A stretch of DNA of 64,000 bases from Schmidtea polychroa (Eukaryota), in NCBI GenBank assembly GCA_044892525.1, contig CM097885.1, positions 19,160,001 through 19,224,000 of the forward strand, read 5' to 3'. This document shows positions 4,012 through 39,206 of this stretch, one piece after another. The notes under the pieces are model-generated. The model did no database searches, was not told where the DNA came from, and saw nothing but the letters and a program-made list of their open reading frames with translations. Within the stretch, counting starts at the first letter, position 1, and each line of letters starts with the position of its first letter. A program made the translations under genes and the position numbers.

Positions 4012-4996
<985 letters not shown>

Positions 4997-14506: not shown

Positions 14507-14927
14507 CATGGGTGTGTGCAGGAATTTTTTCAGGGAGGCGGACAAAAATATTTTTTTTACCAAGTAGACAATTTTTCTAGGGGTAAGAGATTTGAAATAA
14601 AATGCATGTGTATAATAAATATTTGTGGCATTATACAAAAAGGACATTTTTATTAATTTACAAAATAGAACACTTTTTTTAAAACCAGAACGTCAGTTAA
14701 TATTGAAAGATTTTATACTAATAAGATGTTTTGAAATCATTGATTTCCAATATAATTAATAACATTAAAAAAAGACAGGAAGCCTCTTTAAATTTAATTT
14801 TTTTATTAATTTTTTTTTGTCTTGGATTTTTCCAACATTGTTTGAGCGCATCTATTAAAATGTGTTTAAACTTATCGAAAAATAGAATGGTTTGCGAAAT
14901 TCAGGAGAGGGGGAGTGGACGCCCATG
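14507..14927. mobile_element. Non-autonomous hAT-type MITE (421 bp)
   Basis: Termini CATGGGTGT / ACGCCCATG are inverted (1 mismatch); 8-bp flanks GAAGCAGA (14499-14506) and GAAGCAGG (14928-14935) form a near-perfect TSD, the length typical of hAT elements. Confidence 0.7.
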
Positions 14928-16087
14928 GAAGCAGGTGCTTGTATTTTGTGTAACTGGATAAGTTTAATTAAAAAATATCAAATTAATTAATATAATAATA
15001 TTGCTAAATTTAATTTATCTTATTAAAATAATTATTTAAACTAATAGAAAAAAAATTAAATTAAAGATATTAATGAAAACTTTCGATATTTTGCAATAAA
15101 AATTTGAAAAAAAATGAAATAGAACATTTATGAAAAGTTAATGAATGCGAAAGATATTGTTTACTAAACTGTTTAATAATATATAGATAATTATCAATTT
15201 AAAAACTTTTTTATTTTATAAATTGACAATTTAGTTGTGTTCAAGAATTGTATATTTTGTGCAATTAATTTTTTAGAAAATTGTATGAAAATATGAAGTT
15301 AAAATTAAATTTTGATTTTACTGAAAATTTTAATAATCCCTCTAAATTTCAATTGCTAATTTATTTCACCCATTTAAATTATAATTCAAAAAAGTAAATT
15401 TTATTAATATTATTTCCTTTAATCATTCAAAAAACGTTATTTAAATGTAAAATATTTTTTAAATTTATTACATCTATAGTAAAAAATAAAATATAAATTA
15501 ATTTAAATAATAATTTAATAATTACTTAGAAAGTAGGTTTTTCCCGGGCGCCCTTTTTTCAAAATCCCAAGTCCTTCACGTGAATCTTATTGCATGCGTT
15601 AGAATCAATGTGTTCGCAAACCAAAAACGCACGTATGATGCAACACATTAATATTTTTCAATACTTTAAAATGCTATTATACTTGATTTTAAATTCCATC
15701 TATACATTGCACTATTGAAAAGTGCATCAGGAGTCGGCTTTCCATCGTATGATTTGGTCCCTTAAAGCAACTTCCGAGAATTTAGATTCAACAAAATACA
15801 CACAACTTATTTTATTAAAATTTTTATTGTATTAAAATTTTTATTGTATTAAAATTTTTAACGACTTATACAAAATATATGTAGAAATATTATCGGATCA
15901 ATGATCGGATCAAAAATGTTACTAAAAATAGATGTCTTTTGTTATTAAAAATAGAACGACCTTGGCGAGTCAACGGATCAATGATCGGATCAAAAATGTT
16001 TATAAAAATAGATTCAAAATGTTACTAAAAATAGAACGACCTTGATGACTCAGTAGATGAGTCATGGTCTTTGTTTAAATGACCTTG

Positions 16088-16219
<132 letters not shown>

Positions 16220-16354
16220 ATTTATAGTAATAAATAATAAATCCCATGGGCGCGTCATTGTCTTTGTTCTGAAAACAGATGTCTTTGTTCTGAAAATGAT
16301 GAGTCTTTGTTCAAAAAATAAATGAGTCATCGATGAGTACTTTTGTATTGCCGT

Positions 16355-17290
16355 TTGTTTGATATGTATATTATAAGGTTTGAAAAATTTAAACCTTGGA
16401 TCCTTGGACTCTTTGACCTTCAAGCTTGGACCATCATACTCATCTTTGAATTACCTTTTGTTTGATATGTACATAATAAGGTTTCTAAAATTTGAAACTT
16501 CGACCCTTTGACTCTTTGACCTTCAAGTTTGGACCATCATACTCATCTTTGAATTACTTTTTGTTTGATATGTATATTATAAGGTTTTAAAAAATTTGAA
16601 CCTTGACCCTTTTGATGGAATGACCTATGAAGGTATGACCATCATACTCACCTTTGAATTACCTTTTATTTGACATGTATATATCTATATGTATAATTTT
16701 TAAAGGTTTTCAACCCTTTGAAGGTTTGAAGGTTCAGGAGCATTCATAAACCTTTGAAAGTATGACCACGATACTTACATCTCGAATACTTTTTGTTTGA
16801 TATGTATATTATAAGGTTTTAAAATTTTTGAACCTTGGACCCTTCGACCTTTGGACCTTCGAACTCACCATCAAAAGTCCTTTTGAAATATATATATATA
16901 TATAATATGGTTTGAAAAATATTTAATTTTGGACACCTTTTGAAGGTTATTGACCCACCATATACCTTTGAGGGTATAATCATTAGGTAGACCTCTCAAA
17001 TACCTTTCGAATGATACCCTTGGGTGAAGGTTCGACCTTATTTGACCTTTGGAAATTTAAATATGACCTTGATGAATCATCCAATGACCTTGAATGAGTC
17101 ATGGTCTTTGTTTCAATGGCCTCGGTGAGTCACCCAATGACCCTGAATAAGTTCTAATTACCTTGATGAGTCATAATGTCTTTGTTTAAATGACCTTGAA
17201 AAATGTACTTTTAGACTTAGAAAAAAATTTCATTTTGGAAGAGGGGTGTGCCAAAGGTGACATGTGCCAGTGGTGACACATCCTACTACT
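16355..17290. repeat. Degenerate tandem array (about 100-bp units) ending in a Maverick-like terminus
   Basis: TTTGATATGTATATTATAAGGTTT...GACCATCATACTCATCTTTGAATTAC recurs about 5 times; the block ends ...GACACATCCTACTACT at 17290 (reverse complement AGTAGTAGG). Confidence 0.6.
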
Positions 17291-19189
17291 AAAGAAATCT
17301 TTTTATTGAAATGATTTTGTAAATAATTAATTTTGAAGTTACTTTTAAACATAAAATCTTTTCATATAATAATAAATAATAAACTTACTTTAATTCATAT
17401 TTTCATGTAGAAATAATATCTAAAAATCATTTTTAAGTATCTTTTATTGATATTAAAATTTTCTTTAAAAATAATTAATTAATTAATTAAAATGTATTCA
17501 TTAAAACTAAATAAAAATTACAGTTTAAAATAACTTTAAATAAATTTCATTCATATAATTTTTTTCATCCCAATATTCATACTACAAAGATTTATTGACT
17601 GACACCAAGTGTTTAGAAATTGCGTTTGCCGTGTTTGTATGTTTCATAAATATTTTCTATCCTATCTTGAAATCTAGAATAAATTGGCGGGTGTAATGGT
17701 TAAGCATACGTTTTAAGCATACATATAAGTTTGTGTTTTCTATAATATGAAATAATAATTTTCTTTTGTTATATGCGGTTTTTTTGAATTACAATACGAT
17801 ATAAAAGCGCATAAATTACGGAAAATTTAACCATAAACTAAGGTCTATATAAGAAATAATTAATTTACATACATAAAGAAAAATAATCAGATGAGGTTAA
17901 GGACATTAGTACAAATTTATTGCATCTTATCATTTTCAAAAAAAAATTATTTTAAATGATCTGAAATTCTGTTTATAAAAAACTTTAGAAAAAAATTAAT
18001 TTAATAAAAAATATATTTATTAACTTATCATCTGTTCATAATATTTGTCTTTGTTGCACATAATTTATGCGCTTTGGTGTATAATGACATGAAACACGCG
18101 TCACTTCATTGGATAATATGTATATTTATAATACATGTTGCATTTTTAAAATTAGATTTTTAGTTATATATCTTTCCCAAAAAATAAGGAAGTCAACAAA
18201 ATTTATTTTATCAGATATTAATAGTATGAATATCATTAAACTCACTGCTGGAGGTCCAAAACGTTGAAAGCGATGTGTTAATTTATAATTGTTGGATCAG
18301 TAAACGCTATGATGGAAACAAGACATATAATTGAAGAAACCCGGGACTACTGGAAAGTTTAAATTTTCTTTGACGTCAATTAAAAAAAACGATCAAAATA
18401 TTTGGGAAAACCTAATTTAATTTTAAAAGTAAATTCATTTTCAACAAGTCCGTCTTCATTAATTAAAGTTACCACAGTTTACCCATCAATTAAGGACGTA
18501 CCGCTGGTTTCAGTTTTAATGGAAATTATCACAACAAAAATGGGAATAATTAATTAATTTCATTCAATTACTGCTAATAAAAAGAAACTTTAAAACAAAT
18601 ATACATTTAAATTAAAATTTTAATTAAATAAAAAAAGTTACTTAAAAATAAATTGGCTATGTTCATGAACTCAATTATTTTATAATATTATAAAACATAC
18701 AGTTAATTCCGGTTTAAATTAAAAATCATATTGTCTGATATAAAAAGAAATATGACTGGGTTATACTATAATCTTTTATAACAATACCCCAATATAAAAT
18801 ATCCAAAAATAGTATTAAAAATTTAGGATGATTTTTAGCCAATGGAAATTAACTAAAATATTTAATAAAAAATCTCAAGTCCCTGTATTGAGATTTCAAA
18901 ATTATTCGAAATAAATTTAATAAAACAATTGGGATAAAGTCAGATGTAAAGCATTGATGATAAAATCTTGAGATTCTAAAATAAACGTTCAAATTGAAAT
19001 GATTCCAGACATTATTAGTTTTTAATTAATTTTTGTCTTATTTTGATTACAAACCCGACTACATAATTTTGGTTTATTATATTAACTATATTACTTATAG
19101 AAGTTGAGGCAAGAAAATATGATAATTATTTCTTATTTAAAATGTTGTTAATGAAAATAGAAATTGACAAAATAACGTATCATTTTTGA

Positions 19190-19640
19190 GTATTACACGA
19201 GTCAACGCATAGAGTGTGGTACCCCCTCTCCTGAATCTAAAACAATACCGGTAGTTTTTCATGAAGCATAAATTGACAAAACAGCTTGGATAGTAATATA
19301 GAGCAGGAGTATTGAATGTTTCAAACATGATTGGAATCATTTTTTCTCTGTAAATTTTTGGATTCAGTGGTCCTTCCGTGAAAAGAACTAGATGCTCTTC
19401 TAGCACAATTCTCAATTCATTGAAAAATTTATGATGCCAGATCATTTTTATATCATCTCTGTCAGTAACAATGGGATGTTCAATGGGATATTTTATCGTC
19501 AAAATATATCTTTATGATTGTGTATTTTTGGCCGCGTAACTATTTTTCTGGCCTATTTCAATCACAATACCTTGATGAGAAGATCTTTCGATAATACATG
19601 AAAAGACAGTGCATGGAGCATCATCATTTGATAATTTGGA
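19190..19640 (-). pseudogene. Actin pseudogene fragment (about residues 20-175)
   Basis: [105 protein letters not shown] aligns with actin; in-frame stop and a downstream frameshift; no intron in the aligned part. Confidence 0.9.
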
Positions 19641-22600
19641 TATGAACATATCCAAGAATTAATATCATAAAACATTTTGAATATCGAATTAATAAATTTC
19701 CAAAAACAATTGAATTCAAACGAGCAAGAACGTATTTTTTCCAAATCAAACAAAACCCTCTCGCATTTTACAATTCAAAAATCATTAATCAAAACATAAT
19801 CGATCAAATTCCAGAATAAATCCACAGAGAAAATCAAATCGATCACTAAGTTCCAGAAAAAAAAAATAAGCTCACAAAACAAACTCAATTACTTGCATCT
19901 AAAAAAATCAGATAAAATATGTGTGCGCACACAGACACGAATAGTCAGAATTAACCAGTTCCCGAGACATCAGTGCCTTTTACCCTATTTATCATCAACA
20001 ATATATAAAAATTATTTATTTTTGTTTGGCCTTCCTGAATGGAGTCGTTAACTTTGATCATTGAATGGTAACAGTTGAGATATTGTTTTCTGTTTTTTTG
20101 TATGAATAGGGGGCCCTGTACTTTTAAATAGGATGAATTTAATGCCTCGAGGTTTTGTTCTTCTTTAAAGATTTTAGAAACCTTTTAGAAATCGTTGAAT
20201 GTCAATTCACAAAATCATATTGAGTACTTATGTGAAAAACAGACTCACATTACTTTATAGGTTCCTTTGAAAAGTGTATCAAACACTATTTGGTCACTAT
20301 AGTTGACTTTGAGCTTCGTGTCACTGTAATCTTCTACTATCAAAAGCTTTGACGTTGGTAATATGATGATCTCGTATTTAAAAGAATAAAAAAATGATAA
20401 AAAAATTAAAAAAATTGAAAATAACTTTAATTTCGAACTTAAATTAAGATACAACCGAAATACAGATAATTCAAATAGAAAGACCAAAATCTCCAAATTA
20501 ACATTTGAAGTAAAAACTCAAAATTTTCAATTTTTTATGTTAATTAGCTATAGATTTCTAAAAAATATTTTATTTTTTAGAAAAAGTTATTAATATATTC
20601 ATTAAAGTGAAACAATCTGAAATAGTATACTTTCAAACAAATAATTATAGCCCAAAATCAGATATATTGAATAAACATATTCAATTTTTGATTATTGAAG
20701 TTTTTCTTTGATTTTTCAATAGTTACAGATGAAAACTACTAAATAGAAGCACAACTAGTGATACACCTAATTCCGAATATTAAAAGTTTCTATAATCTTA
20801 AAAAAATCGATAAAATTATAATATAGGAATACACAAACTTATCTGTGTGCAAATATTTAATGTTCCGAAAGTTAAAAGTTTCATTATAGGAATTGAGAAA
20901 GTGACAGAAAAATAATTTTACATAGAAACACAGCACACATAAAATAAAATACATGCAAATTTATTATAGTTTTTTTTATTCCGAAAGTTAAAAGTAATTA
21001 ACATTATTATTATTATTATTATCTACTACGTAATATTACATATTTTATTTTATCACAAATAAAAGTTTTGTAATTTATTTTAAATTAAGGACAATTTTTG
21101 ATCAACAAAAAAATGATTCCTCCTAAATTCAATTGTCGATGCTTTCAAAATTAACTTTTTTAATTCTATTTTAAAAACAATACAATACGGAATCCTTTGC
21201 AAGGTTTTCAATTATTTCATAAAAATGAATTAATAATTTTTTTGACATTTTCTAAAATTAATTGTTGGTATTTTTATTATGCAGTATTTTTATTAAGCAC
21301 AACAAATAAATTTTTTAGTTACTTGTTAAAATAAATTTCTAGATTTTTGGTAAATAAATAATTCCTTGAATAATTTTATCGTTACTGAAAACCAGTTTAC
21401 CAATAAAAATATTTAAATATTCTTGTTTCACTTTGTAGTTTGACATAAAATAATACTAAAATAAACGAATGAAATAAAACAATAAATTTCGTATATTTTA
21501 ATAAAATTTGTTAATATTATATTAATTAACGCTAATTTTTAAATCTAAATGGAATACAAATATTTTCTAAATATTTTGCCATAGATCACAACATTGTGTC
21601 TAAAATTGAAAATAAACATTAATACCACGCTGAGTTTTAATTTAAATTCAGAGGCGGGATACATTCATGGGTATTGTAATTAAATTTATTTGTTCGTAAT
21701 GATTTTAACAGATTTAGTACTAATTATGACAAAAATAGTATAAATTTTTAGGCTTCGGATTGTATAATCTAGAAAAGAAGTATTATTAGTTTAAAAGCTA
21801 TTATTAATGCAGATCAATCATACATGCTCATTGCACACACAAACATCCCGCATCAGTCATCATACAATGAGGCTATTGTAACCTGGTTAGACAATTGATT
21901 TATCACTAAATTCTCTTACATATTTTATCTGTTTAAATATATATCCTACTAATCTTTCGTGCATTACCGGTTATGAATGTTTGATCTAGAATATTGTAAA
22001 ACAACTAATACATAATTTAATTAATTTACTTTCAAATAAATTTCTAAGAAAATCAATTTCAGAAGAATTTGTAACATCATTTTAATTTGATATAAATAAA
22101 TTAATTTTATTAATTGCTTGATTGATTTTATGAATAAATTTCTCAACGAAGCCTTTCATATTTTCACTCAACATAACATTTTTAATTTATTCACGATAAT
22201 GAGTTTTGCATTTTGTATTAGAATGAGTTTGTTTTTGGAAGAAATCATAATTTATTTATTTTATTTTTTTTTTCGTAATCGTCATAAATCAGCTTGACAG
22301 AGAGCGTGATTGTTAATTATTGATGTGATGCTCCATCAGTTACTGACGAAAGTTGAAAGATCAGTTGGGTGTGAAGAGTTTTGGTTTTCCTTATCCTTTG
22401 CAAAATAACTGAGAAATGGCGAACAAAAAAACCCATCAAACACTTACATTGGATATATTTATGATTTATTGTAAGAAATTATCAATAATTAATTTTGTAA
22501 GTCGAATATATAAAAATAATAATTAAAACATAATGTGGGAAAATCTTTTAAATTAAAATTGATTAAATTAATTATTGAAATTTAAGTAAAAATAAAAAAA

Positions 22601-24762: not shown

Positions 24763-26085
24763 TTTCTTATAATATTTAAATAAATATGATTTTTTGTTTT
24801 TTTCATTATAAATTAAATTAATTTTTTCGATTTCGAATTTTAAGAGTCCTGGAATTTCTAAGTAATTAAAAAATTTGCAGAACAATACTAATATGTAATC
24901 TTTATATAAATTAGTTAAGAAAAAACTAAATACCATATTTTGTAACTGAAGAATCGTAATCCAAGTAAAAAATTAATTGTTTTTTTAATCTATGACATTA
25001 AACCTGGCTCATTCGTGACATTATCTAAATTTTGTCTCTTTCTAATTTCTTTTCAGTAATTTATCATTCATTCATGTAAAGTTTATCTGATTACAACTAC
25101 GAAAATCATCTAGATCATTTCAAACAAACAATAAACAGTTGTATATAAACCCAATCAACATTTCCTCAATTAAAATAATTTAATTTATTGCTGGTTTTGC
25201 ATCAACAAAATGTCATGGAATATCCTATCATTATCCCTTCGTTTATCTCTTATTATCTTTTCGGTAGATTCTGAATAGAAGTAAAAATTAAAAATAATTT
25301 CATAAAATTACTGAAGTTGTGAAAAAAAAATTTTATGATGTGAATTTTATTTTAATTAACCTTTCAGAATTTAAAAATTTTTTATTAATAAATAAATTAT
25401 GAAATTAATAATAAAATTACTATAATTATATATATATATATAATAGCTACAGTCTGTCAAAAATGACAGACTTTGCTTAGAAATCATATTTTTCAATCCA
25501 AATAAATAATTCTCTCAGCATAATAAAATTTGTAAGTACAAAGAAAGTTGCTTTAAAATGTGATACAATTCTTATTTATTTTATTTCAACAACTTTTTAA
25601 TGATATATTCAAATTTGTTATTAATTTAACAATTTATAATTTTTTAATATTTATATTAAAATTACAATTATAATTGTACTTACGTCAAGTAATCAGTCAA
25701 AATTTGAATTTTCAAAAATACATTATCACAACTGCATTATTAATAAATAAAAAATTTATTGCTGAAAATTCGTGAATATCAAAAACATCGATATATTTAG
25801 TGATTCATAGTCAAGCTTTTTAATAAATACAATAACAATTGAATGAAATCAGTGGTTAAATTTGTAAAAGTTCTTATAATAAGATTTAATAGTATAAAAC
25901 TTATCAATTTCAATAAAATTTTGCTTTATGGAGAATTATATTGGTTGAATGATTTTCTGGGTATGTGAATTATATTTTATATAATACATACTATGAACTC
26001 CAAAATAAATATTAGGTTATGGGCAAACATAGGTAAATTTATTCTTTTAATATTTCATTTATTTTTATTATAATCAGAGATCAAA

Positions 26086-26418
26086 AGTAGTGAGGAATCT
26101 ATGCACCCCAGCACCCCCACCCTAAAAAAAAACAGCGCTATTGACCCATATTTTCCACATTTATATGCTTTTTTACCCCATATTCTTCACTTTTTTTAAC
26201 TTTTAAACTTTGTCCCCTATTGCCATTAACCCTTAATTTCTTCCCTTAAAAGTAAAAAAGTTCGGAATAGATGTATTTATAGATTAGTAATTCCGAGAAA
26301 AGGTAACGGGGTGCATAGATTCCTCACTACTTGGTCTTAAGGATTTAATGTTATAAGGATTTAATGTTATAAGAATATCAGATTACCTAATTCATAATGA
26401 TCTAGGTCGCCTGATCAC
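26086..26418 (+). repeat. Left terminal inverted repeat (333 bp)
   Basis: Exact reverse complement of 40359-40691 on base-by-base reading; contains a 16-bp tandem duplication TAAGGATTTAATGTTA (26338-26369). Confidence 0.97.
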
Positions 26419-26491
26419 TTTTAGATTTAAAAAAAATAAAAATTAATATCAAAACCAAAACATCGTATCCAACCAAAAAATTCTTTTAAAA

Positions 26492-29400
26492 ATGGAAGCT
26501 ATTTTCAATTGTGAAATTTGTGAAAAAAATTTTAAAAATAAAACTGCTTTAACATCTCATAAAAAATCAAAAGACCATTTAATAAAAGCTAACACACTAG
26601 ATGACACTAATTCCAAAATCTGTTCTAAATGTAAGGATAGATATTTATTTTCAGGTTATAAGAAGCATTTTAAAAATTGTATTGGAGTTCCTAAAAACAG
26701 AGAAATATTCGAATGTTCAGCATGTGGAAAAAAGATGAAGATAAAATCTTTTTACTTAAGACACATAGAAGATTGTGGTCTTGAAGCAAAAGATTCTGAT
26801 TCAAACTCAATGACTGAAAAAGCTGAAAAACTAGAGTTTAATTGGGACAACTTCAATCACACCGATGTAATTGTAGAAGTAAAACGAGGACCCAGATCAA
26901 TCATGCAATATATAAGAGAAAATAAAAAAAAAATAATATCATCAATGGATGATGCTATAAAAAAATTTGGTAGATCAAGATTTAATGTTATAAAAGTTAA
27001 ATTTACAGGAAATGCAAAATACTGGAGAGGAGATGATTCAATCGCAATGCCTCTAGATGTAAAAATTGAAACCTCATATAAATATTTATTTTCTACAAAA
27101 GCAGGAAATAAACTTGTTAATGATATAGCTAAAGAATTGGAAGAAAAACAAGAACAGGTGGAACAAGAACTAGGAGAATCTAATTTAAGATTCCACTCTT
27201 TTCAAAATATAGAGATTGAATACTGGAGAGGCGCACCACCAAATCCTAAATCTTTTATTCACACACCATTCACCTCCAACCATGTTATAAATGTACAGAA
27301 TAAAGATAATAAATGTTTTCAATGGTCAATACTTGCACACTTACATCCTCAAGCAACTAACCCACAGAGAGTTCAAAAATATGAAGAATATGAATCTGAA
27401 TTAATTTATCCAAAAGATTTTTCCCACCCAATGAAAATTGAAGATGTTCCAGCATTTGAAAAATTAAATAATCTTAAAATTAATATTTATCAATTCATTC
27501 CAACCAAAATTACAAAAACTAGAAAAAATAAAAATTATAAACACATTATTCCTATTTACATTTCTAACATGGAAATCTCAGATGAAAAGAGAGAAGTAGA
27601 TCTTTTAATATTAGAAGAAGGTAAACCAGATGAAGACTTTGATGGAGAAGAATATGGTGAAGAGGTTCAAAGCGTTCACCCGAGGAGAGAAGCAGAAGAA
27701 GGCATTTCATTAGAACCAGAAGCAGAAAGCACTGCGTCCGGAGGCACTATGTTAGATAAAAAACTTCATTATATCTTAATAAAGAATTTTCAAAGTTTTA
27801 TGAAAGGAAACACACTCATTCGTGGAGGCATATGTTGTAAAAGATGTTTATATCATTCAAGTTCAAAACTTGCTGCTATTAAACATGAGAGACTCTGTTG
27901 TAAGAATCAACCTGCTTTAATAAAAATGCCACACAAGAAAAATGCTAATATGAGGTTTAAAAACTATTCCAATCTATTAGAAGCATTGGGAGTGGTTTAT
28001 TGTGATTTTGAAGCTATAAATGTAAAACTAAGACGAACAAAAACTAATACTGTAAAACTAACAAAACAATTACCCTCTGCTTATAAAATGTTTTTTAAAA
28101 GTAATTATCCAGAACTTGTAGAATCTAGAGAATATTCATTTAGAGGAACTTCTGACAAAGAGACTCTAGATCATTTTGTTAAAACTTTAAATAATCTAGA
28201 ACATGAATTATATATAATATTAAAATCCAACTTTCCTATGAATTTTTCAGAAGAACAAGAGGAAGAATATAAAAATGCAACACACTGCTGGATGTGTAAA
28301 CAAGAGTTTGATATTCAGGAGGAGGAGGATGAGAAGCCAAAGGTTGCAGACCATGATCATTTTAAAAGAGAAAATAATTACAGAGGAGCAGCCCATAAAA
28401 AATGTAATCTCAATTGTAAAAAACCAACACACATACCATTTATATTTCACAATCTTTTTGGCTATGATATTCACCTATTCATTAAGCATCTGGCCGCAAA
28501 TGCTAAAAACTCTTTCAAGGTTATTGGACTTACAAAAGAAAAATATAAAAGCATTCAATATGGATGCTTTAAGTTTTTGGACTCGTTAAATTTCTTAGGG
28601 ATGTCTTTGGATGGGATTGCTAAAACTATGAACCCTGAGGATTTTAAATATACAAAAGAACATGTGTTATTAAAAAACAATATTCCATTAGAGGAATATA
28701 ATACCTGTCTAGCAAAAGGAATCTATCCATATGATTATATAGACTCCTTTGAAAAATATAATGAATTACTCCCACCCCAAGAAGATTTCTTTTCTGTTTT
28801 AACACAATCAGGGATTTCTGATCAGGAATATTCCCGTGCAGTTAAAATGTGGAATCTATTCAACTGTAGAAACCTTGGAGAATATACTGACATGTATCTT
28901 TCCTTGGATGTTTATATCTTAGCTGATTGCTTCGAGACATTTTCAAAAGCTTTTGAATTAAAACCTTATAATTATATAACCGCTCCCTCTCTAGCTTGGG
29001 ATATATTATTATATACCATATGGACTGATGAAGATGTAGCAGTAAGAAATAAAACTATTGAATTATTAGTTGAGCTTGATATGTTTAATGTATATAAACA
29101 TAATATTAGAGGAGGTATTTCTTCAGTACAAGGGAATAGAGAAATAAATGCTAATAATTTTACAACTCTTTATCCTAAATTTTTCAAAGATCCTGATGCT
29201 CTATATGTAGAAATAACAAACCCAGAAGATCGTAAGGAAATAATGGAAGGTCTTTCTAATCCTTCTGAAATAATGTATATAGATGCAACAGCTTTATATG
29301 CGGGAGTAATGACTCAATACCTTCCAATTGGCAAGTTCACCTGGAAAGAACCCACTGAGGAATTAATACAAGAAATTCTAAAAACACCAAAAGATTCTCA

Positions 29401-30886
29401 ATTTGGATATGTTGTAGAATGTGATCTTGAATATCCCAATGAAATAAAATCCAGAACTAGATATTTTCCATTTGCTCCTGTAAGAAGAAAGATCTCTCCT
29501 GAAGAACTATCAGATTGGCAGATTGCTCAGAATAGAACACCATGTATAAAACTTTTATGTGATCAAACAGATAAAACTGATTATCTTTGTCATTATAGAC
29601 TCCTCCAGCTTTATCTCTCACATGGAATGGTTTTAAAAAAAGTACATTCTATAATTAAATTCCGACAAGCTCCTTTTATGAAAAAATTCATCGAGGGAAA
29701 TATCTTAAAAAGAAATGCAGCAAAGAGAGCTGGAAATGCTTTTCTTGATATGATTTATAAACTTTTAAACAATGCAGTCTTTGGAAAGACAATGGAGAAT
29801 ATTGATAAATATACTCGTGTAGAGCTCTTAACCAATACAACAAAAGATCTTAATAAATATAATCGAATAATTGGAAAGCCTACATTTAAAAATGCAGAGA
29901 TATTCTCTAGTAACCTTATAGCTATAGAGATTAAAAACTCTGTAAAAACTTATAATAAACCAATCTTTATAGGTTTTTCAATTTTAGAACTTTCAAAGCT
30001 TCAAATGTATGAGACCTACTATGATGTTCTAGTACCCCATTTTGGAGATCGAATATCCATGCATGCTATGGACACTGATAGTATGTTTTTAAAAGGTCAT
30101 AGTAAAGATTTAAAAAAGGAAATAAGTGAAAACGAAACCTTAAATAAATTAATAAACAACTCTGGAGAATTATTTACTTTTAAAGATGAAAAACCAAATA
30201 CTCCAATAAGTGGAGGAGTGTTTATTAGACCTAAACAATATTCTCTTGAAATGAAAGACAAACCAATTATGAAAGAGCATACAATAAAATTTATAATAGG
30301 GGAGGGAGAAGGATCTGTTGAAATAGATCACACATTTGAATATCCTTCATTCCCTGAAAACCCGAAAAGCTATAAAGAAAATAAAAGTAAAGGAATTCAA
30401 AAATCAGTGTCAAAAACCTTCACACATCAAGAGTATAAAGATTCATTAAATATAAATTATAAAAATAAAATTGCTAAAACCCATCATCTTAAATCAGAGA
30501 AACATAATATATATCTTGAAGAGTGTAACAAGATTGCTATAACAAATTATGATGATAAAAGATTTATACTTTCTGACTTGAAGACAACATTACCTATTGG
30601 AAATGATTTAATCCCTATAATAAAAAATCTTGATAAAATAAATGAAATTTATAACCTAGAGATTACAGACCTTCAACTTGCTAAAGTAGAAATCCAATAT
30701 CCTGAAATATTAATTCCTAAACCTTTATATAATCAAGTTCAAAATATAAAACCTATAGAACTTAAATATTTTAATACTGATCCTGAATATATCCAAGGAC
30801 TAACACCAGAAGACTTTAAATCACATAAATTAATGTTAAAAAGCATTACTGCAGAAATAATTATAAATCAATTACGACTGGTCTAA
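26492..30886 (+). CDS. pPolB: Protein-primed family B DNA polymerase with N-terminal zinc fingers and an endonuclease-VII-like insert
   Basis: Exonuclease motifs YCDFEA, HNLFGYD, YLSLDV; polymerase motifs YIDATALY, KLLNNAVFGK, MDTDS, FKDE, RPKQY, KGI; CWMC...DHDH...YRGAAHKKCN (EndoVII-like); CEIC..HKKSKDH and CSAC..HIEDC zinc fingers. Confidence 0.96.
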   Translation: MEAIFNCEICEKNFKNKTALTSHKKSKDHLIKANTLDDTNSKICSKCKDRYLFSGYKKHFKNCIGVPKNREIFECSACGKKMKIKSFYLRHIEDCGLEAKDSDSNSMTEKAEKLEFNWDNFNHTDVIVEVKRGPRSIMQYIRENKKKIISSMDDAIKKFGRSRFNVIKVKFTGNAKYWRGDDSIAMPLDVKIETSYKYLFSTKAGNKLVNDIAKELEEKQEQVEQELGESNLRFHSFQNIEIEYWRGAPPNPKSFIHTPFTSNHVINVQNKDNKCFQWSILAHLHPQATNPQRVQKYEEYESELIYPKDFSHPMKIEDVPAFEKLNNLKINIYQFIPTKITKTRKNKNYKHIIPIYISNMEISDEKREVDLLILEEGKPDEDFDGEEYGEEVQSVHPRREAEEGISLEPEAESTASGGTMLDKKLHYILIKNFQSFMKGNTLIRGGICCKRCLYHSSSKLAAIKHERLCCKNQPALIKMPHKKNANMRFKNYSNLLEALGVVYCDFEAINVKLRRTKTNTVKLTKQLPSAYKMFFKSNYPELVESREYSFRGTSDKETLDHFVKTLNNLEHELYIILKSNFPMNFSEEQEEEYKNATHCWMCKQEFDIQEEEDEKPKVADHDHFKRENNYRGAAHKKCNLNCKKPTHIPFIFHNLFGYDIHLFIKHLAANAKNSFKVIGLTKEKYKSIQYGCFKFLDSLNFLGMSLDGIAKTMNPEDFKYTKEHVLLKNNIPLEEYNTCLAKGIYPYDYIDSFEKYNELLPPQEDFFSVLTQSGISDQEYSRAVKMWNLFNCRNLGEYTDMYLSLDVYILADCFETFSKAFELKPYNYITAPSLAWDILLYTIWTDEDVAVRNKTIELLVELDMFNVYKHNIRGGISSVQGNREINANNFTTLYPKFFKDPDALYVEITNPEDRKEIMEGLSNPSEIMYIDATALYAGVMTQYLPIGKFTWKEPTEELIQEILKTPKDSQFGYVVECDLEYPNEIKSRTRYFPFAPVRRKISPEELSDWQIAQNRTPCIKLLCDQTDKTDYLCHYRLLQLYLSHGMVLKKVHSIIKFRQAPFMKKFIEGNILKRNAAKRAGNAFLDMIYKLLNNAVFGKTMENIDKYTRVELLTNTTKDLNKYNRIIGKPTFKNAEIFSSNLIAIEIKNSVKTYNKPIFIGFSILELSKLQMYETYYDVLVPHFGDRISMHAMDTDSMFLKGHSKDLKKEISENETLNKLINNSGELFTFKDEKPNTPISGGVFIRPKQYSLEMKDKPIMKEHTIKFIIGEGEGSVEIDHTFEYPSFPENPKSYKENKSKGIQKSVSKTFTHQEYKDSLNINYKNKIAKTHHLKSEKHNIYLEECNKIAITNYDDKRFILSDLKTTLPIGNDLIPIIKNLDKINEIYNLEITDLQLAKVEIQYPEILIPKPLYNQVQNIKPIELKYFNTDPEYIQGLTPEDFKSHKLMLKSITAEIIINQLRLV

Positions 30887-30910
30887 GAATTAGAATTTTA
30901 ACACTATAAA

Positions 30911-31465
30911 ATGATGGAAACTAAAAATCAAGAAAATAACATTTTTGAAATTATAAAAAATATTACTAATTTAAAGGATAACAGATGTAAAGGAATACAG
31001 AGAGTGGTTGCAAAGAATCTTTCTCATCAAGATTATATAGATACATTGAATCCAAATCATAAAGATAAAATTGATGAAATACATCAACTTAAAAGTGAAA
31101 ACCATGATATTCACTTGATAGAATCTCAAAAAATATCATTATCAAATTATGATGATAAGAGATTCATACTAAGTGATTTAATGACAACTCTACCTATTGG
31201 AAATAATTTAATCCCTATAATAAAAAATCTAGAAAAGTTGAATAAGTTATATGATACAAAGATTACTGATCTTGATATTTATAATGTTGAAATTATTTAT
31301 CCCGAGAGAGAAATCGAGAAACCTTTATATTCTCAAGTTTTTAATCCTATATGTTTAGAACTTAAATATTTTAATACTGATCCTGAATATATAAAAGGTC
31401 TAAGTGATAAAGAATTTAAAGATCATAAATTAATGATTCATAGGTTGGCTTTCAACCATAACTGA
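30911..31465 (+). CDS. Stand-alone paralogue of the pPolB C-terminal region
   Basis: Gap-free alignment to the pPolB C-terminus over about 155 aa (about 62% identity by manual count), e.g. NYDDKRFILSDL, TTLPIGN, ELKYFNTDPEYI; own ATG and open frame. Confidence 0.85.
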   Translation: MMETKNQENNIFEIIKNITNLKDNRCKGIQRVVAKNLSHQDYIDTLNPNHKDKIDEIHQLKSENHDIHLIESQKISLSNYDDKRFILSDLMTTLPIGNNLIPIIKNLEKLNKLYDTKITDLDIYNVEIIYPEREIEKPLYSQVFNPICLELKYFNTDPEYIKGLSDKEFKDHKLMIHRLAFNHN

Positions 31466-31559
31466 AACCAACGATATTTAATTTTTTAATAATAAAATGT
31501 CGACAATTAATTTAAGCAACTATAGCAACCTGATCTACTTTTTTAAAAATACACCCATT

Positions 31560-32171
31560 TTATAAGTAAGAATTCTTTAACCATTTTTCTCCAGATGTTT
31601 TTTTATTACTTATAACATTAGCCACCATGCCCTCCCTTTTTAATCTTATAACCTCATTCTTTATATCTTGTATTATTTGATTTGATTTCATTATTTCTTC
31701 GTCTGTCAGGATTCCATCTTCCAAAGCTTTTAATTGAAATAAAAATAATTTAGAGATTCCTAATTCTATTGATAAACAAACTTCTCTATATAAACTTTTC
31801 TTTTTAGAAGTATTAGATAATGAAACTATTTCAGTTAAGAAACCATCAGCCACAGAAATACTTCCAAGTATTACAGGTGCAAGAGTAACAACTGGTAAAG
31901 TTATGGGTAAAATAACTGTTAATATTGCAGATGCAAATCCTAAAGAATAACCTATAACTTTTAAAACTGTATTCCCTTTATTCCATCTATTTTTAATTTT
32001 TTTATAATGCTTTAATAAATCTTGTAAATGTAAGGTTTCTGATTTAAATTCTTTTACTCTCATAATTTCAAGTTCTGTGGGAGCCGAGGCCTTGGAACCT
32101 TTGTGACCTTCGGAATAATATCCTGATGATCTCAATTCTGGGTAAATTTTTTCTTCTCTTACTTCTTCCAT
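31560..32171 (-). CDS. Maverick membrane protein (hydrophobic hairpin)
   Basis: Hydrophobic stretch VLKVIGYSLGFASAILTVILPITLPVVTLAPVILGSISV between helical regions; N-terminal IYPEL and ASAP motifs. Confidence 0.75.
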   Translation of the reverse strand: MEEVREEKIYPELRSSGYYSEGHKGSKASAPTELEIMRVKEFKSETLHLQDLLKHYKKIKNRWNKGNTVLKVIGYSLGFASAILTVILPITLPVVTLAPVILGSISVADGFLTEIVSLSNTSKKKSLYREVCLSIELGISKLFLFQLKALEDGILTDEEIMKSNQIIQDIKNEVIRLKREGMVANVISNKKTSGEKWLKNSYL

Positions 32172-32179
32172 TTTAATAA

Positions 32180-33190
32180 TTAAAAAAATAAGACTTTATT
32201 CTTCTGAGCACCATCTGGTACCAATACTCGGATATCAAAAGAAACTCTTGTTGAGAGGATGTCTTTATACAATTCTCTCAATGCTTTACGAACTTCATCA
32301 ACATCAACCTTTTTTCCATAAAATATTAAATCTATATATTGTACAAGTGAACTAGAAAAATGAATATTCTTACTTTTAACTTTATGTAGTCCATGTGAAT
32401 GAGTATTAACATACCAATCTCCGTGTGGTAAATCATAACTAGTCATTATAACATCACCCTTTTCAAGCTTACTATTATAATCACATTTCACAAACCATTT
32501 CATTCTTTCATTATCATCATCAAACAAAAAGAAATAAGGATCAATAATTTTTACAACCATAAAAACACCCCATTCTTTACTGTTTGTTGTTATTAAACTT
32601 GGTTCTATAAAATGTTTATATGTATGGGGTAATAATGTTTTATTCTGTTCTAATTCAGCAGCTCTTTTTCTAATACTATGTGTGGTGTTAATGTGTGTTC
32701 CATGAGACTCTAAATTTGAAATTCTTTTATTAAATGATGTAATCATCTCATTTATTATATTATATATTGCATTAAATTTAGTATTCATAATTTGTTTATC
32801 TTTAGAATTTAATATAGCAGTATTTAACTTTACAACTTGTTCAGTTAACAGACTTTGTAACTTGTCAAATTTATCATTAAATCGTTGTTCGATATTATTA
32901 AGCTTTGATTCCATTGAATCAATTTTTGTTGTTAATGAACTTTCAATTCTTGTTGTTGTTAAATCAGTATATTTTTTAACACCACCTACATATTTCTTAT
33001 TAACTGCATCAGCTTCATCAGTTGGAAAAGATAATTCTTTTATCTTGTGTCCATTTAAAATTAAATCACCCTTCATTGAATCACCTCTTTCATTAATATA
33101 TTTATTTTCTGTTAAAGTTAATATTTCTTCTGTATTAAACCCTGTTTTTATTGTTCCACCACCTCTATTACATGGAATATAAGAACTCAT
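32180..33190 (-). CDS. Fibre-like structural protein
   Basis: GDSMKGDLILNGHKIKELSFPTDEADAVNKKYV resembles viral tail-fibre/trimeric stalk motifs, followed by heptad coiled coil and a C-terminal globular region. Confidence 0.65.
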   Translation of the reverse strand: MSSYIPCNRGGGTIKTGFNTEEILTLTENKYINERGDSMKGDLILNGHKIKELSFPTDEADAVNKKYVGGVKKYTDLTTTRIESSLTTKIDSMESKLNNIEQRFNDKFDKLQSLLTEQVVKLNTAILNSKDKQIMNTKFNAIYNIINEMITSFNKRISNLESHGTHINTTHSIRKRAAELEQNKTLLPHTYKHFIEPSLITTNSKEWGVFMVVKIIDPYFFLFDDDNERMKWFVKCDYNSKLEKGDVIMTSYDLPHGDWYVNTHSHGLHKVKSKNIHFSSSLVQYIDLIFYGKKVDVDEVRKALRELYKDILSTRVSFDIRVLVPDGAQKNKVLFF

Positions 33191-33214
33191 TTATTAATAA
33201 TTTAAAATGAATCT

Positions 33215-33979
33215 TCAAACCTGTTTCAAATGTAAATACATTGAAATCTCTTCTCCATTAAAATCAATCAATTCTCCTTCTTGATTAAGAATTTTAAAAT
33301 TAATATCCATTATATATTTTCTACATAAAGGTAAATAATTTGGAGTATTCATTCTTTCAACTATTTTATATCCCATAGGAACTGTGTTTGAGGGAAAGGA
33401 ATATAAAACATTTGTTTGTTTACCATTATTATAAGAACCTGTTATACAATCGCAATGAATATTTATTGTGTTTGTATTTATAATTTTTATAATATGTTCT
33501 GATGTTATTATTTTATCTTCTTTTATTGTTATATCCATAGGTTTAAATCCTAAAACTGTGTGAAAGAAACAATTATCTAAAAAACTAATTTTTATATTCT
33601 TCAAAGTCATTACACATTTTGAAGTTGGTATATCCATTTTAATTTTAATACCTTCATTTGTTTTTTTAGAAAGTATATCATTTAAATCTTTTATCTCATA
33701 TGCCCCAGGTTCTATTGTTATAATTTCTGGTTTATGCCCATCACGAGTTTGAATAGTAAATTTATTATTATCTTTAGTTATATTAAAAATAGTATTATAA
33801 GCACAAAACCATAATAGCCCCAATTCATAATTTAAATTTTGATCTAATTTAATTGAATCTTGAAAGTTTATAGTAAAGTCTGATTCTTTTGAATTTATAG
33901 ATAAAGTTCTTGAATATTTATCTGACATTATGTTTACCATTTTTTTTAAATTATCTTCCGGAGGGTTGTGAAGCTCCAT
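33215..33979 (-). CDS. Minor capsid protein (penton, single jelly roll)
   Basis: DFTINFQDSIKL..YELGL..YNTIFNIT, IEPGAYEIKDLN, INIHCDCITGSYNNG...VLYSFP, NQEGELIDFNGE: Polinton/adintovirus penton pattern. Confidence 0.88.
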   Translation of the reverse strand: MELHNPPEDNLKKMVNIMSDKYSRTLSINSKESDFTINFQDSIKLDQNLNYELGLLWFCAYNTIFNITKDNNKFTIQTRDGHKPEIITIEPGAYEIKDLNDILSKKTNEGIKIKMDIPTSKCVMTLKNIKISFLDNCFFHTVLGFKPMDITIKEDKIITSEHIIKIINTNTINIHCDCITGSYNNGKQTNVLYSFPSNTVPMGYKIVERMNTPNYLPLCRKYIMDINFKILNQEGELIDFNGEEISMYLHLKQV

Positions 33980-34027
33980 TTCTTTAGTAGTAAATTCATA
34001 TAGTAAAAATCCTTATAGTAAAAATCC

Positions 34028-34492
34028 TTATAGTAGAGATTCTAGATCATTATAAATTTCTTGAATTATAGATTCAAAATCCTGCGTATGCCCCTTTCCC
34101 TCTCCCTTATTCAATCTATACAAAACATATAAACTTAAAATACCACATATTTTAGTATTCAAAGGTTGAACTTGTAAAGAGTTAAAAGTATAACCATTTG
34201 GGGAATCAATCGGAGAACCCTTCAAGAGATAATCTTCAACTTCTTTAGTAGGTTTAATCCCAAAAGAATCAAAGTAGATAGATTTCTTATATATACAAAC
34301 CCAATGAGATCCTTTTTCATTTGAATTTTGATAATTGATTATTATATTCAGGGGACTCTCCAGACTTGATAATTCATCATTCATTAATATTTTAATTTTT
34401 AAATTTAAATAATTTGCATAATCTTTTAAATCAAAATTTGTTTTTGCATTTATTCCAAATGTTTTTAAAAAATCTAATATTGAAGGAGTCAT
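34028..34492 (-). CDS. Adenain-like cysteine protease
   Basis: GSHWV (His), YFDSFG (Asp), QVQPLNTKICG (oxyanion Gln and catalytic Cys). Confidence 0.93.
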   Translation of the reverse strand: MTPSILDFLKTFGINAKTNFDLKDYANYLNLKIKILMNDELSSLESPLNIIINYQNSNEKGSHWVCIYKKSIYFDSFGIKPTKEVEDYLLKGSPIDSPNGYTFNSLQVQPLNTKICGILSLYVLYRLNKGEGKGHTQDFESIIQEIYNDLESLL

Positions 34493-34514
34493 TTTGTATT
34501 TTAAAACTTCGTAT

Positions 34515-35357
34515 TTATAACTTCGTATACTTATTAAATTTATCTTTTGAAATTATTCCTTGTTTTAACAAATCTTTAGAAATCTTTAAAATATCAGAAT
34601 CTAAATTATTATGTCCTGCTTTCCTTGCAGCTAATAGTTTTCTTAATTCAATAAAAAGATTGATGGGATTTGGTTTACCACCTTCACTAATTAATCCCTC
34701 TCCCTCTGTAACAACATAACCCTTTTCATTTTTATTTAAATAATTCTTTAAATCTTGAATATATTTTGCTTTAGAACTAGCTCTTATTAATTTTATTAAA
34801 TTTAAATATTTTTTAATTTCTTCAACATCATCTGAAGAATATCCACAAAGTAATCTATAAAAATCATCTGTAAATTCAAAGTCTAAATATTCATTATTAT
34901 AAACATTTTGTGAATGAATACGTGATTTATTTTCTGAATTTGAACAGAATTTGGACAGAGTCCCCTGAGACTTTTGACCTTCAGACAGAGTCCCCTCATA
35001 TGGATTAAGATAGAGGCCTTTTCCAACGGACACTCCCCCTTTAGCTTGCCCTACCTTCTTCATTGAATCGATTTCAGTTTGTAGTTTTTCTTTTTCTAGG
35101 TCTGTCTTTTGAGATTCTTTAGCTTTTTGAACTGTAGTTGCAATTCCTCCAGCTATTCCAGCAGCACCTGATAAACCAGCAATGATTGCAGGTATTAAAG
35201 CAGCTAATGGAAGAATGCCACCTTCTTTAGCTTTGTGGAGCTTCGCTCTAACTTGTTCTTTTACATGTTTTTCAATAAAATATTTTTTACCATCAATTAC
35301 AACTGATTTATTTTTATTTGAATTTATTAATTCTTGCAAAGATTCTTCAGTTGTCAT
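34515..35357 (-). CDS. Core/membrane-lytic precursor protein (adenovirus pX-like segment)
   Basis: KEGG|ILPLAALIPAIIAGLSGAAGIAGGIATTV resembles the GG-cleaved amphipathic pX-type peptide; further GxG|L sites (GKGLYL, GEGLIS); C-terminal ELRKLLAARKAGHNN..DLLKQGII resembles a recurrent Maverick domain. Confidence 0.75.
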   Translation of the reverse strand: MTTEESLQELINSNKNKSVVIDGKKYFIEKHVKEQVRAKLHKAKEGGILPLAALIPAIIAGLSGAAGIAGGIATTVQKAKESQKTDLEKEKLQTEIDSMKKVGQAKGGVSVGKGLYLNPYEGTLSEGQKSQGTLSKFCSNSENKSRIHSQNVYNNEYLDFEFTDDFYRLLCGYSSDDVEEIKKYLNLIKLIRASSKAKYIQDLKNYLNKNEKGYVVTEGEGLISEGGKPNPINLFIELRKLLAARKAGHNNLDSDILKISKDLLKQGIISKDKFNKYTKL

Positions 35358-35372
35358 TTTATAATAAACAAA

Positions 35373-36164
35373 ATGGATATTTGGAAACCAATTTTAAATA
35401 GACATAAGAGTAAATTTAATAATAAAGTATTTCCTGATAATTTTAGATTATTAATTGTTGGTTCTTCTGGATGTGGAAAGAATGTACTTGTTTTGAGAAT
35501 GTTACTTGAAGATGATTTTTTAGATTATAATAATTTAATCTTTTATTCTACAACCATAAATCAACCAGAATTACAACTTTTGAAATGTGGATTTGAAAAT
35601 AAATTAACTAAAAAAGCAATAATTGATATTTTTAAAAATCAACATAGGTGTCCTGAAGAAGTTTTTCAACCTTGTGATATGGTTGATTGGTATAAGGAAA
35701 AGATTTTAGAATCAGATATTAGTAATAAAAATGATTATATTTGTGAAGAAGGGCAGGAGGCAATTCAAGTTTTATTCTCTAATAAACCTGAAGATGTTTT
35801 ACATTGTGATTTACTTCCTAAAGATAAAAAGAATCTAGTTATATTTGATGATGTTGTCAACATGAAAAATCAAGAGATTCAAAAGAGTTACTTTACACGA
35901 GGTCGACATAATAATTGTAATGTTATTTATATATCTCAAACATATTATGCTTTAGATAAAAATTCAATAAGAAATAATTCCAATTGTTTTATATTTTTTA
36001 AATTAGATCGCCGTGATAAGAATATGATTTATAATGATTTATTTTCAAATGTTGAACCTGATAAGAATATGTTTGATATGTTTGTTGATAATCATTGGAA
36101 AGAAAAATATAATTATATTTATTTGGATAGAGAAGAAGCTGAAATATGGAAAAGTTTGTTTTAG
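35373..36164 (+). CDS. FtsK/A32-like genome-packaging ATPase
   Basis: Walker A GSSGCGK(N), Walker B LVIFDD, arginine-finger region TRGRH, ISQ and IRNN motifs; start moved to the ATG at 35373. Confidence 0.92.
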   Translation: MDIWKPILNRHKSKFNNKVFPDNFRLLIVGSSGCGKNVLVLRMLLEDDFLDYNNLIFYSTTINQPELQLLKCGFENKLTKKAIIDIFKNQHRCPEEVFQPCDMVDWYKEKILESDISNKNDYICEEGQEAIQVLFSNKPEDVLHCDLLPKDKKNLVIFDDVVNMKNQEIQKSYFTRGRHNNCNVIYISQTYYALDKNSIRNNSNCFIFFKLDRRDKNMIYNDLFSNVEPDKNMFDMFVDNHWKEKYNYIYLDREEAEIWKSLF

Positions 36165-36175
36165 GGCTTGTCGAC

Positions 36176-37585
36176 TTAAAAATCTGTTTTCTGTAGTTCA
36201 TTATTATAAAATCTACCTAATATTTTTTCATTATGTAAATCAAAGATGGTATATGTTATTGGAGTTGTATAATGTATTTTATTTATAATAAAAATTTCAT
36301 TTGTCCATTTTGCTGTGAATCCTTTTTCAAATTTATTTTTATATTTAAATATTCTTACTCGGTCACCAATTTTAAACTTTGGTTTTTCAATAACATCATT
36401 TTCAATATTTACCACTTTAATGGTTTCAGGCTTCATGGAATCATTTAAAGGTGTTAATTTTATAGAACTATGTACATCATTATTATATTCATTTACAATC
36501 TTTTGTAACAATTCATTGTTCCATTTTTGTTTTCCAATAGCAGTAAAATATTTCCACATTTTATTTTTTAATGTTCTATTTAATCTTTCAACTACGACTG
36601 CTTTTCCTTCGTTTTCTGTTGAATATAATTTAATATCATTTTCATTTAAAAACTTTGTAAAAACTTTGTTATAAAATTCTGTTCCTTTATCACACCATAA
36701 ATATTTTGGGATTCTTTGATTTTCTTCAAATATATTTTCAAATGCTTCTGTAATAGAATATCCTGTTTTATTTTCTTAACATCTTGCAAAAGCAAATCTT
36801 GTATATAAATCTATTACAGTTAAAATTATTTTATATTTTTCAGGGTCTGATGATTTGGGCATAAAGACTAAATCTGCAGACCATGTTTGATCTTTTTCAT
36901 GCACTTGAACTTTTAAATATTTTTTATTTTTTCTAAATTCATGGTGTAATTCCTTTGCATATTTTATTTCTGATTCTGTTGGGGTTTGTAAACTAGTCTT
37001 GGCTGTACTCTCGAGGGATCTTTCAATCTCTGCTTGTTCGATAATCTTTTTATAAGCAACATCTTTTGCTTTCCTAGGAAGTCTTGCACCCATGGTGATC
37101 GGACTGTGTCCTAAGCCTATGAAAATCTTACCTTTCATTGCTAATTTAACTAGAGCTCTTTGAATCTTTTCTTGGGTTGATGGATTTTGGATACTATTTA
37201 AATCATGTATTAAATTCACATCTGCAACATGTCTATCTCTAAGATTTGTTGAATTGTTTGCAATGTCATGTTTTAAAGCTGCTTGATCAATTCTATTTAT
37301 TGGTTCTTCTCCTTGTTTGGGATTATTATTTTCATCTAATCTAATATCTAGACGTGTTCCTGGTCCAGTGTAGTTGTGTTTAAATAAATGTCTTTCACCT
37401 GGATATTTTTCTATAGTAAAAGGTTTTAATATTGAAGATGTTGTTTTTGAAGATTGCAAATCGACTCCAGCTCGTGGAATTAGATCACCTCCTGTATGTT
37501 TTTTAGTTTTTAAATGACTTGCTTTATGATGTCTTGTAACTTGACAATTACAACTTTCACATCTCCAATATTTATTTAGAGACAT
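36176..37585 (-). pseudogene. Zinc finger + parvovirus-type phospholipase A2 + retroviral-like (rve) integrase fusion, one premature stop
   Basis: One reading frame 37585 to 36176 interrupted only by TAA at 36778-36776; CESC..HLKTKKH finger; HNYTGPGT...DQAALKHDIA...D PLA2 motifs; integrase DDE triad WSADL / WCDKGTEF / VERLNRT. Confidence 0.9.
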
Positions 37586-37614
37586 TTTAAAATGTTAAAA
37601 TATCAGGGATTATA

Positions 37615-38915: not shown

Positions 38916-38971
38916 TTTTATATATTAAAATTTACACACACAAAATAGGATTAATTAAATATATTATGTAA

Positions 38972-39053
38972 GCCATTATAGCGGAGTGGGAATAGGCTTC
39001 AATTTTATCACCGGGAGTACCGGGTTCAATTTTCGATTTTGGTCAATTTTTTT
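38972..39053 (+). ncRNA. tRNA-like Pol III unit 1
   Basis: A box TAGCGGAGTGG (38979), B-box-like GGTTCAATTTT (39023), T7 terminator 39047-39053; anticodon arm does not pair. Confidence 0.65.
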
Positions 39054-39206
39054 CGATATTTTTTTTTCAACGGAATCTGATTCAGCGTACTGATTTTAGT
39101 ATATATTTAAATTTTCAGATCGATCTGAGTGGTAGTTGTCGAGAAAATGAATAATTAATTATTAATTTCATCAATAAATAGTCACACATTAACAACTTAT
39201 TTTATA

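Follow-up and report, generated by a model that had tools for sequence, protein, structure and literature searches.

A Maverick/Polinton of Schmidtea polychroa with an inverted copy of its terminus inside each terminal repeat: a possible fixed-polarity fold-back end

The element and its genes

The sequence analyzed here (the window) is a stretch of 64,000 nt from Schmidtea polychroa (assembly GCA_044892525.1, contig CM097885.1, positions 19,160,001-19,224,000 of the forward strand). Judged from its sequence, the interval 26086-40691 is a Maverick/Polinton of 14.6 kb, with perfect 333-bp terminal inverted repeats (TIRs; left, 26086-26418, + strand; right, 40359-40691, - strand) and a 6-bp target-site duplication (TSD). 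The TSD, ATCAAA, abuts the outer left end at 26080-26085 (+) and recurs at 40692-40697 (+). The assignment follows from size, TIR length, the (AGT)2 end motif and the TSD, which fit the definition given in the available text of PMC8097293. The expected genes are also encoded: a protein-primed DNA polymerase B (pPolB), a packaging ATPase, a double jelly-roll (DJR) major capsid protein and a rve-type integrase, the last recognized from below-cut-off rve matches and its similarity to the integrase of a related locus (L084).

The pPolB gene (26492-30886, +; PF03175, E 2e-15) is an open frame of 1464 aa. A structure model places a terminal-protein-like (TP) domain at about residues 120-247 (26849-27232, +), and vOTU Cys/His motifs come after it. 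The model, which covers residues 110-370 (mean pLDDT 79.6), shows two long helices and four strands, and a serine sits where helix 2 meets strand 4. The best match of the domain model is the little-finger domain of 4IR1 (PolIV; Z 8.7, rmsd 2.6, 99 aligned), with which polinton TPs are compared in PMC11161782, the source of the TP-domain definition. Among hairpin-bearing relatives (see below), GSGW-type and Cys motifs are present in all five for which the frame was found, and the His motif in four of these. Protein priming has probably been retained, since both the TP fold and the vOTU motifs are present. An ORF of 184 aa (30911-31465) duplicates a C-terminal part of pPolB (30374-30673 vs 30974-31273, 72% identical).

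The packaging ATPase is encoded at 35373-36164 (+; PF04665, E 1e-8). A phospholipase-A2-like domain and the integrase lie at 36176-37594 (-), where an in-frame stop interrupts the frame in the window copy. The integrase is in two pieces, which match positions 2-40 and 52-95 of the rve profile, both under the curated cut-off. It resembles the L084 integrase (E 2e-19), which itself matches rve (E 9e-9). The DJR capsid gene (37615-38915, -; PF21738, E 3e-23) is split over two ORFs, whereas the protein is a single 431-aa frame in relatives. Although the integrase and capsid frames are interrupted, both TIRs are identical, and the window copy may be mobilized with help in trans. An ORF at 34028-34492 is a candidate cysteine protease; its sole profile match is weak (Peptidase_C39, E 0.057), and it carries what we take to be adenain-like motifs. 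Lacking among the Pfam matches of the 12 window ORFs scanned is the HUH family.

The non-coding right arm contains a tRNA-like sequence (39209-39279) followed by a T run. It scores 26.7 bits against the Rfam tRNA model (gathering score 29; E 0.007), and ARAGORN called no tRNA there. Two further B-box-like motifs lie near 39743 and 39992, and these sequences may presumably be Pol III small-RNA genes like the adenovirus VA RNAs. A strong hairpin with a poly-A loop (40246-40314) sits immediately inside the right TIR and is absent at the left. Elsewhere in the window, a 6-kb stretch (~56000-62000) with raised GC, strong GC and AT skew, and a 209-nt direct repeat at 55953 and 60289 is possibly a retroelement.

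The nested terminal unit

Each TIR contains an inverted copy of its own terminus. The left outer arm (26086-26109, +) is the true left terminus and starts with the (AGT)2 end motif, as described in the available text of PMC8097293. It is followed by a 198-nt spacer (26110-26307, +), strand-asymmetric in composition (45 C, 19 G) and with seven CCC runs, and then by the inner arm (26308-26331, -), an inverted copy of the terminal 24-mer that is predicted to pair with the tip. The remaining 87 nt of the left TIR (26332-26418, +) hold a duplication with a 16-nt period. At the right end the inner arm lies at 40446-40469 (+) and the outer arm, the true right terminus, at 40668-40691 (-). Self-complementarity of the arm spans exactly 24 nt, in a unit of 246 nt. 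The left and right units are perfect reverse complements of each other, and TIR identity extends over 333 nt. No fifth match to the 24-mer was found in the 64-kb window with up to three mismatches allowed, and 100 shuffles gave none.

The first-pass annotation had reported that the 24-mer reappears inverted 198 nt inward at both ends, which is exact (0 mismatches), and had counted four termini. There are four sequence copies, but only the outer ends are flanked by ATCAAA; the inner copies adjoin TGGTCT, with no TSD.

Folded as single-stranded DNA, the 246-nt unit has a predicted energy of -38.1 kcal/mol (z -7.25), which none of 200 shuffles equalled. This stability comes from the 24-bp stem, because a 150-nt piece without the outer arm is about as stable as its shuffles (z -0.31). 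The mean pairing probability of nt 1-12, which pair with the inner arm, is 0.98. After 24 exact pairs no further pairing follows in the six registers tried. The last base at the 3' end of the + strand is predicted to pair with 40446, so that the element body would be the next template, which is the arrangement of a primer-template junction. At -30.2 kcal/mol the local stem is far less stable than the 333-bp panhandle (-404.7 kcal/mol), and thus could win only kinetically; the loop to be closed is 198 nt, against 14 kb for the full panhandle. The earlier suggestion that each single-stranded end can form its own panhandle agrees with the predicted folds of the window unit and of its relatives.

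We compared positions 25700-27200 with contigs of four out of 15 public sequencing runs listed. Three of the four (X12, X13 and X14) are samples from a single study, and one of them may be the assembly source; X1 belongs to another study. Such contigs drop rare variants, and loose ends were taken from 24 of 870 rows. In X14 a single 337-nt contig spans 26086-26418 with no differences and no gaps, at a depth of 170.8 as against 50.5-70 for interior contigs, and X12 and X13 give deep, continuous cover over the whole TIR. Thus most copies in the family of the window element have the nested end. The first-pass annotation had named family members lacking the inner copy as grounds for rejecting its reading; the inner copy is instead the common form in the run contigs and is kept in relatives.

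An exact flank-to-terminus contig in X13 (25809-26112) has a depth of 8.2 and an interior contig one of 3426, which suggests that the element is probably present in hundreds of copies, an estimate limited by the roughly four-fold variation of summed contig depth along the interior (228k-888k in X12). In X1 a flank contig fits to 26085 and stops there, and is probably an empty site. This run contains diverged polB relatives; its zero depth over 26210-26311 means no contig cover and is not proof of absence, its depth of 5139 over 26312-26362 may or may not include the inner arm, and there is cover over 26312-26413.

Two other features of the runs are recorded here. Depth in X12 peaks at 2.16 million over 26108-26158, compared with 0.75-1.06 million elsewhere in the TIR; the peak may come from poly-A length variants or from derivatives that share no more than the first 70 nt. 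A deletion of 70 nt across the inner TIR boundary (26365-26434) occurs as a natural variant (depth 24467 in X12 and 565 in X13). The deletion begins past the 246-bp unit, which is retained.

Fold-back ends in related loci

We collected 187 pPolB loci (31 from IMG/VR, 80 from JGI and 76 from GTDB bins; 184 distinct). The 76 GTDB loci (L112-L187) come from species representatives, some have host-like flanks, and they are probably eukaryotic or viral contamination of prokaryotic bins. At the DNA level the window TIR had no meaningful match in 111 pPolB loci compared, and its 24-mer had none in IMG/VR or in JGI contigs. Capsid queries recovered no related viral loci.

Inverted 18-mer copies within 1.5 kb were found for 14 of the 2807 end-motif occurrences tested (both strands). 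These belong to seven of the 187 loci, with units of 84-182 nt: L078, L103, L112 and L182 end in ACACAC, and L127, L084 and L098 in AGTAGT (for L084 and L098 the terminal position is deduced from one contig end). Five of the seven units lie ~300-750 nt upstream of polB and two past the integrase, near a contig end. A motif-blind scan gave 48 local inverted repeats, four of which start within 1 nt of an end motif where ~0.07 are expected from the end-motif frequency (0.00072). L112 contains a complete element of 19.4 kb that encodes pPolB, rve integrase and ATPase. The TIR of this element is ~226 bp, and each of its ends carries a 159-nt hairpin, both oriented alike; its TSD falls in a TAA repeat and is hence uninformative. 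This locus also contains a ~4.7-kb tandem duplication (12077-16307 / 16820-21065) in which the C-terminal half of pPolB and the integrase occur twice, either real or an assembly artefact.

In a prospective search of five assemblies, with a pattern built from the outer arm only and the inner arm excluded, 12 matches were obtained: three known ends, five new ends of the same type and four unlike them. Four of the new ends (L204, L205, L208 and L211) fold back at 18-19 of 20 positions, and the fifth, L213, is degraded. The four unlike matches do not resemble true ends, show no fold-back and were rejected; a backward control gave two matches. L130 and L131 also fold back, on contigs that end 9-11 nt short of the tip. 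The truncated-tip scan that recovered them gave four matches among 150 motifs in 184 loci, against a control mean of 1.04 and maximum of 4, and only these two were retained, by longer alignments and homology to L127. In total, 13 intact relatives fold back from the end motif, and one further relative is a degraded end of this type. Since two contigs stop inside the outer arm, such ends are easily missed in annotation. When the assemblies of L127 and L182 were searched for further copies of their ends, only the same end was recovered. A hairpin-shaped pattern found seven IMG/VR loci, none with pPolB and three with tailed-phage genes, and we attribute these to chance; three IMG/VR loci found with a second pattern had no fold-back, and no pPolB in the stretch examined.

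The two arms of the stem have changed together. Over the outer 19 pairs of eight ACAC-type units, 98% of 152 cells are paired, compared with 26-76% in slid-structure controls. Two-sided changes occur at nine of the 19 pairs (22 cells), which none of 500 shuffles matched; these statistics ignore relatedness, and the structure was derived from the same sequences.

In ten of the 13 intact relatives the inner arm, and never the outer one, has an extra base at position 20 (L112, L182, L204, L205, L208 and L211; L127, L130 and L131; L084). Exact pairing resumes past this base for 4-37 nt in the eight relatives measured. The other three depart from the rule: in L078 the extra base is at 28, and mismatches occur in L103 (at 29) and in L098 (2 nt, at 19-20). 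The element body is always on the side of the arm bearing the extra base, and the sole outside-to-outside match (L112 and L208) is a flanking ORF. The carriers are spread over three branches in a quick pPolB tree, which was built from single open frames only (80 of 176) and does not include L078 and L182; they therefore represent about three independent cases, not ten. Copying from arm to arm would erase the extra base. Its persistence between covarying stems thus points to selection, or to a mechanism that requires it.

Fold-backs are not universal. Six probable ends lack them: L096, L113 and L116 are AGTAGT-ended sisters of hairpin-bearing ends and share a subterminal motif of the ACAC clade, and L046, L017 and L164 are ends at contig starts. 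The fold-back is therefore dispensable for many Mavericks. Subterminal repeats of L096 (1032-1345) hold inverted copies of nt 14-28, tip excluded, and this end is possibly an intermediate in gain or loss of the fold-back. L026 has a 184-nt hairpin (4657-4840) ~150 nt upstream of pPolB, with AGTAGT inside the arms and not at their ends. In the nearest relative of the window element, L074 (51% pPolB identity), no inner motif occurs in the 183 nt upstream of polB on a truncated contig. Because the window unit has neither the position-20 base nor a long stem, and L074 has no inner motif, the window fold-back may have a separate origin from those of the relatives. The end design recurs with matched sequence changes in distant relatives and probably aids copying of the element.

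Interpretation and comparison with known systems

Our favoured reading, to which we give even odds, is that the 246-bp unit forms a built-in hairpin of fixed polarity at the element end, from which single strands prime themselves, and is not a mobile sub-element. A single strand would be released by excision or strand displacement, and its 3' end would snap back locally and prime the complementary strand, leaving a duplex that is hairpin-closed at one end. A protein-primed round from the open end could then run through the hairpin to give a head-to-head bridge with both arms. Of the two arms, only the outer type would function as an origin or as an integrase end, the inner one being out of register (relatives) or without the adjoining C-rich spacer (window element). 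Resolution at the outer-type arm would regenerate ends in one orientation, as at the left end of minute virus of mice (MVM). That the inner copy offers a second site for protein priming or for the integrase, as the first-pass annotation suggested, is doubtful: this copy faces the body, so that its use as an end could only release the 246-nt unit, and it is out of register in relatives. For the family of the window element itself, the case for such a function is made by analogy. Still more tentative is the generalization that a widespread subset of Mavericks, including animal ones, combines protein priming at open ends with hairpin self-priming of a parvovirus-like kind, the position-20 shift fixing which arm serves as origin or integrase end.

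If self-priming is correct, protein-primed and hairpin-primed replication would be linked within one element, and a possible origin for giant palindromic satellites would be at hand. Prior models of Maverick exit and replication have two distant TIRs pair; the fold-back offers a concrete local cis signal, and natural sister lineages with and without it exist.

The main alternative, though rather unlikely, is that the fold-back rebuilds a local terminal duplex, used as a template for protein priming or as an excision substrate (at a single-stranded gap or as a cruciform), without self-priming. This comes close to the own-panhandle idea of the first-pass annotation. Ends 15 kb apart would not need to meet, the covariation and arm asymmetry fit equally, and the TP fold and vOTU motifs are kept in hairpin-bearing elements. 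The units (84-246 nt) are about the size of a eukaryotic lagging-strand gap. However, any DNA polymerase could extend a 3' end that is completely paired on a long template, so that self-priming would be hard to avoid, and the local duplex lacks the blunt end of the panhandles on which protein-primed systems rely. The accepted model, as far as set out in the available text of PMC4046053, does need a TIR stem on single-stranded DNA for both excision and priming.

It is less likely that the inner copy in this family is a neutral relic of a single copy-back (template switch), or of a captured short Maverick derivative, spread between the ends by TIR correction and then amplified as its lineage succeeded. 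The missing long stem and position-20 base fit such a relic, as do the placement of the window branch far from other hairpin-bearing loci in the quick tree, the lack of the inner motif in L074, and the depth over 26312-26413 in X1 without cover of the spacer. In one X12 contig, short repeats replace the sequence immediately preceding 26337. Embedded termini are also reported from adenovirus mutants. Against this reading, the arm ends precisely at the terminus, just as those of the relatives do; no common TIR substitution appears among the 40 variant rows listed of 107, whereas polB has several; and the natural 70-nt deletion spares the unit. Capture of a mini-element into an older TIR, in particular, lost weight once the same design was found in relatives.

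The first-pass annotation had proposed that the unit could invert (flip/flop) or be mobilized by itself as a non-autonomous mini-Maverick, the inner copy acting as another functional end. This is very improbable, although the inverted ends of the unit match perfectly over 24 bp and bear the right motif, and TIR depth is more than twice the interior depth in X13 and slightly more than twice in X14, with the X12 peak at 26108-26158. The excess depth extends to ~26418, where depth in X13 falls (34k to 13k), and there is no step at the unit boundary, 26331 (X12, 851k to 758k; X13, 46k to 43k). Flanking direct repeats of 4-8 nt are found in none of 13 units, the window unit included. The loop has a single orientation at both window ends and both L112 ends, and no flipped spacer was seen in the window or the run contigs. 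Among 15 of 20 joints listed, none is a strand-switch joint within the TIR. The extra base is always in the inner arm (10 of the 10 relatives that have one). Had inversion been frequent, the X14 contig should be interrupted at the inner arm; it is continuous across both arms. Solitary 246-bp units are likewise absent from the 64-kb window and left no sign in the run contigs; rare flips or solitary units are possible, since these contigs drop rare variants. Mis-assembly, a general risk at repeats, has a negligible probability given the exact X14 contig through both arms, the continuous depth in X12 and X13, and the agreement of the two ends.

The element resembles the Mavericks/Polintons (adintoviruses) of PMC8097293 and PMC8502044 in its pPolB, rve-type integrase, ATPase, DJR capsid protein and 6-bp TSD, and its TIR of 333 bp lies within the range of 46-1447 bp given there. 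The available text of these papers describes no inner inverted terminus, whereas the window element and 13 relatives fold back. Internal palindromes are noted in some casposon TIRs (PMC4046053, text available in part). Palindromes also occur in the TIRs of Halocafeteria seosinensis virophages and one PLV subtype, where they likewise adjoin the TSD, and for these a July 2026 preprint (bioRxiv 10.64898/2026.07.28.741278) proposes hairpin priming. In the available portion of the preprint these palindromes are 52 nt in subtype 5, were found with a gap limit of 10 and occur preferentially with non-pPolB genes. The window unit differs in its 198-nt loop and in its pPolB with a TP domain, and that portion reports no covariation, arm asymmetry or polarity. 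The available text of PMC11296320, 10.1101/2025.02.07.637071, PMC11131425, 10.1101/2022.07.28.501842 and 10.1101/2024.01.15.575659 holds no relevant passage. For pPolB Mavericks, the literature searched describes no fold-back of the terminus that covaries or has a conserved additional base; that search stopped short of the founding 2006-2007 papers, Repbase and most subscription journals. Terminal palindromes are already reported in protist virophages and PLVs, and a covarying pPolB fold-back with an extra base is apparently undescribed within that scope.

MITEs and other non-autonomous derivatives are likewise short units with perfect inverted ends; the window unit has no TSD of its own (ATCAAA on one side, TGGTCT on the other). 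Adenovirus replicates from a panhandle origin, and laboratory mutants with embedded termini, in which a segment is joined to a second complete terminus, are reported. The likeness lies in the protein-primed ends and in an embedded copy of the terminus near the genome end. Those mutants are laboratory variants, whereas the window form is the family majority and has no second terminus past the inner copy. The AAV ITR has an A/A' stem and exists in flip and flop forms, as terminal resolution yields both orientations. There, too, a terminal arm pairs with an inner inverted copy and places the 3' end on the body; one orientation was seen here (the window, L112, X14 and 10 of 10 relatives).

The left end of MVM offers a further comparison. 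MVM is a single-stranded DNA virus resolved by the HUH nickase NS1, and no such gene is evident in the window element. In its left-end bridge, one extra (third) spacer nucleotide inactivates the origin of that arm (PMC1185569, which in the text available itself questions a single orientation for LuIII). A one-nucleotide inequality of the arms is present in 10 of the 13 relatives and absent from the window unit, where the arms diverge after 24 nt. For the relatives, then, the MVM left end, whose bridge is resolved asymmetrically, may be a fitting parallel, with arms that differ by one nucleotide.
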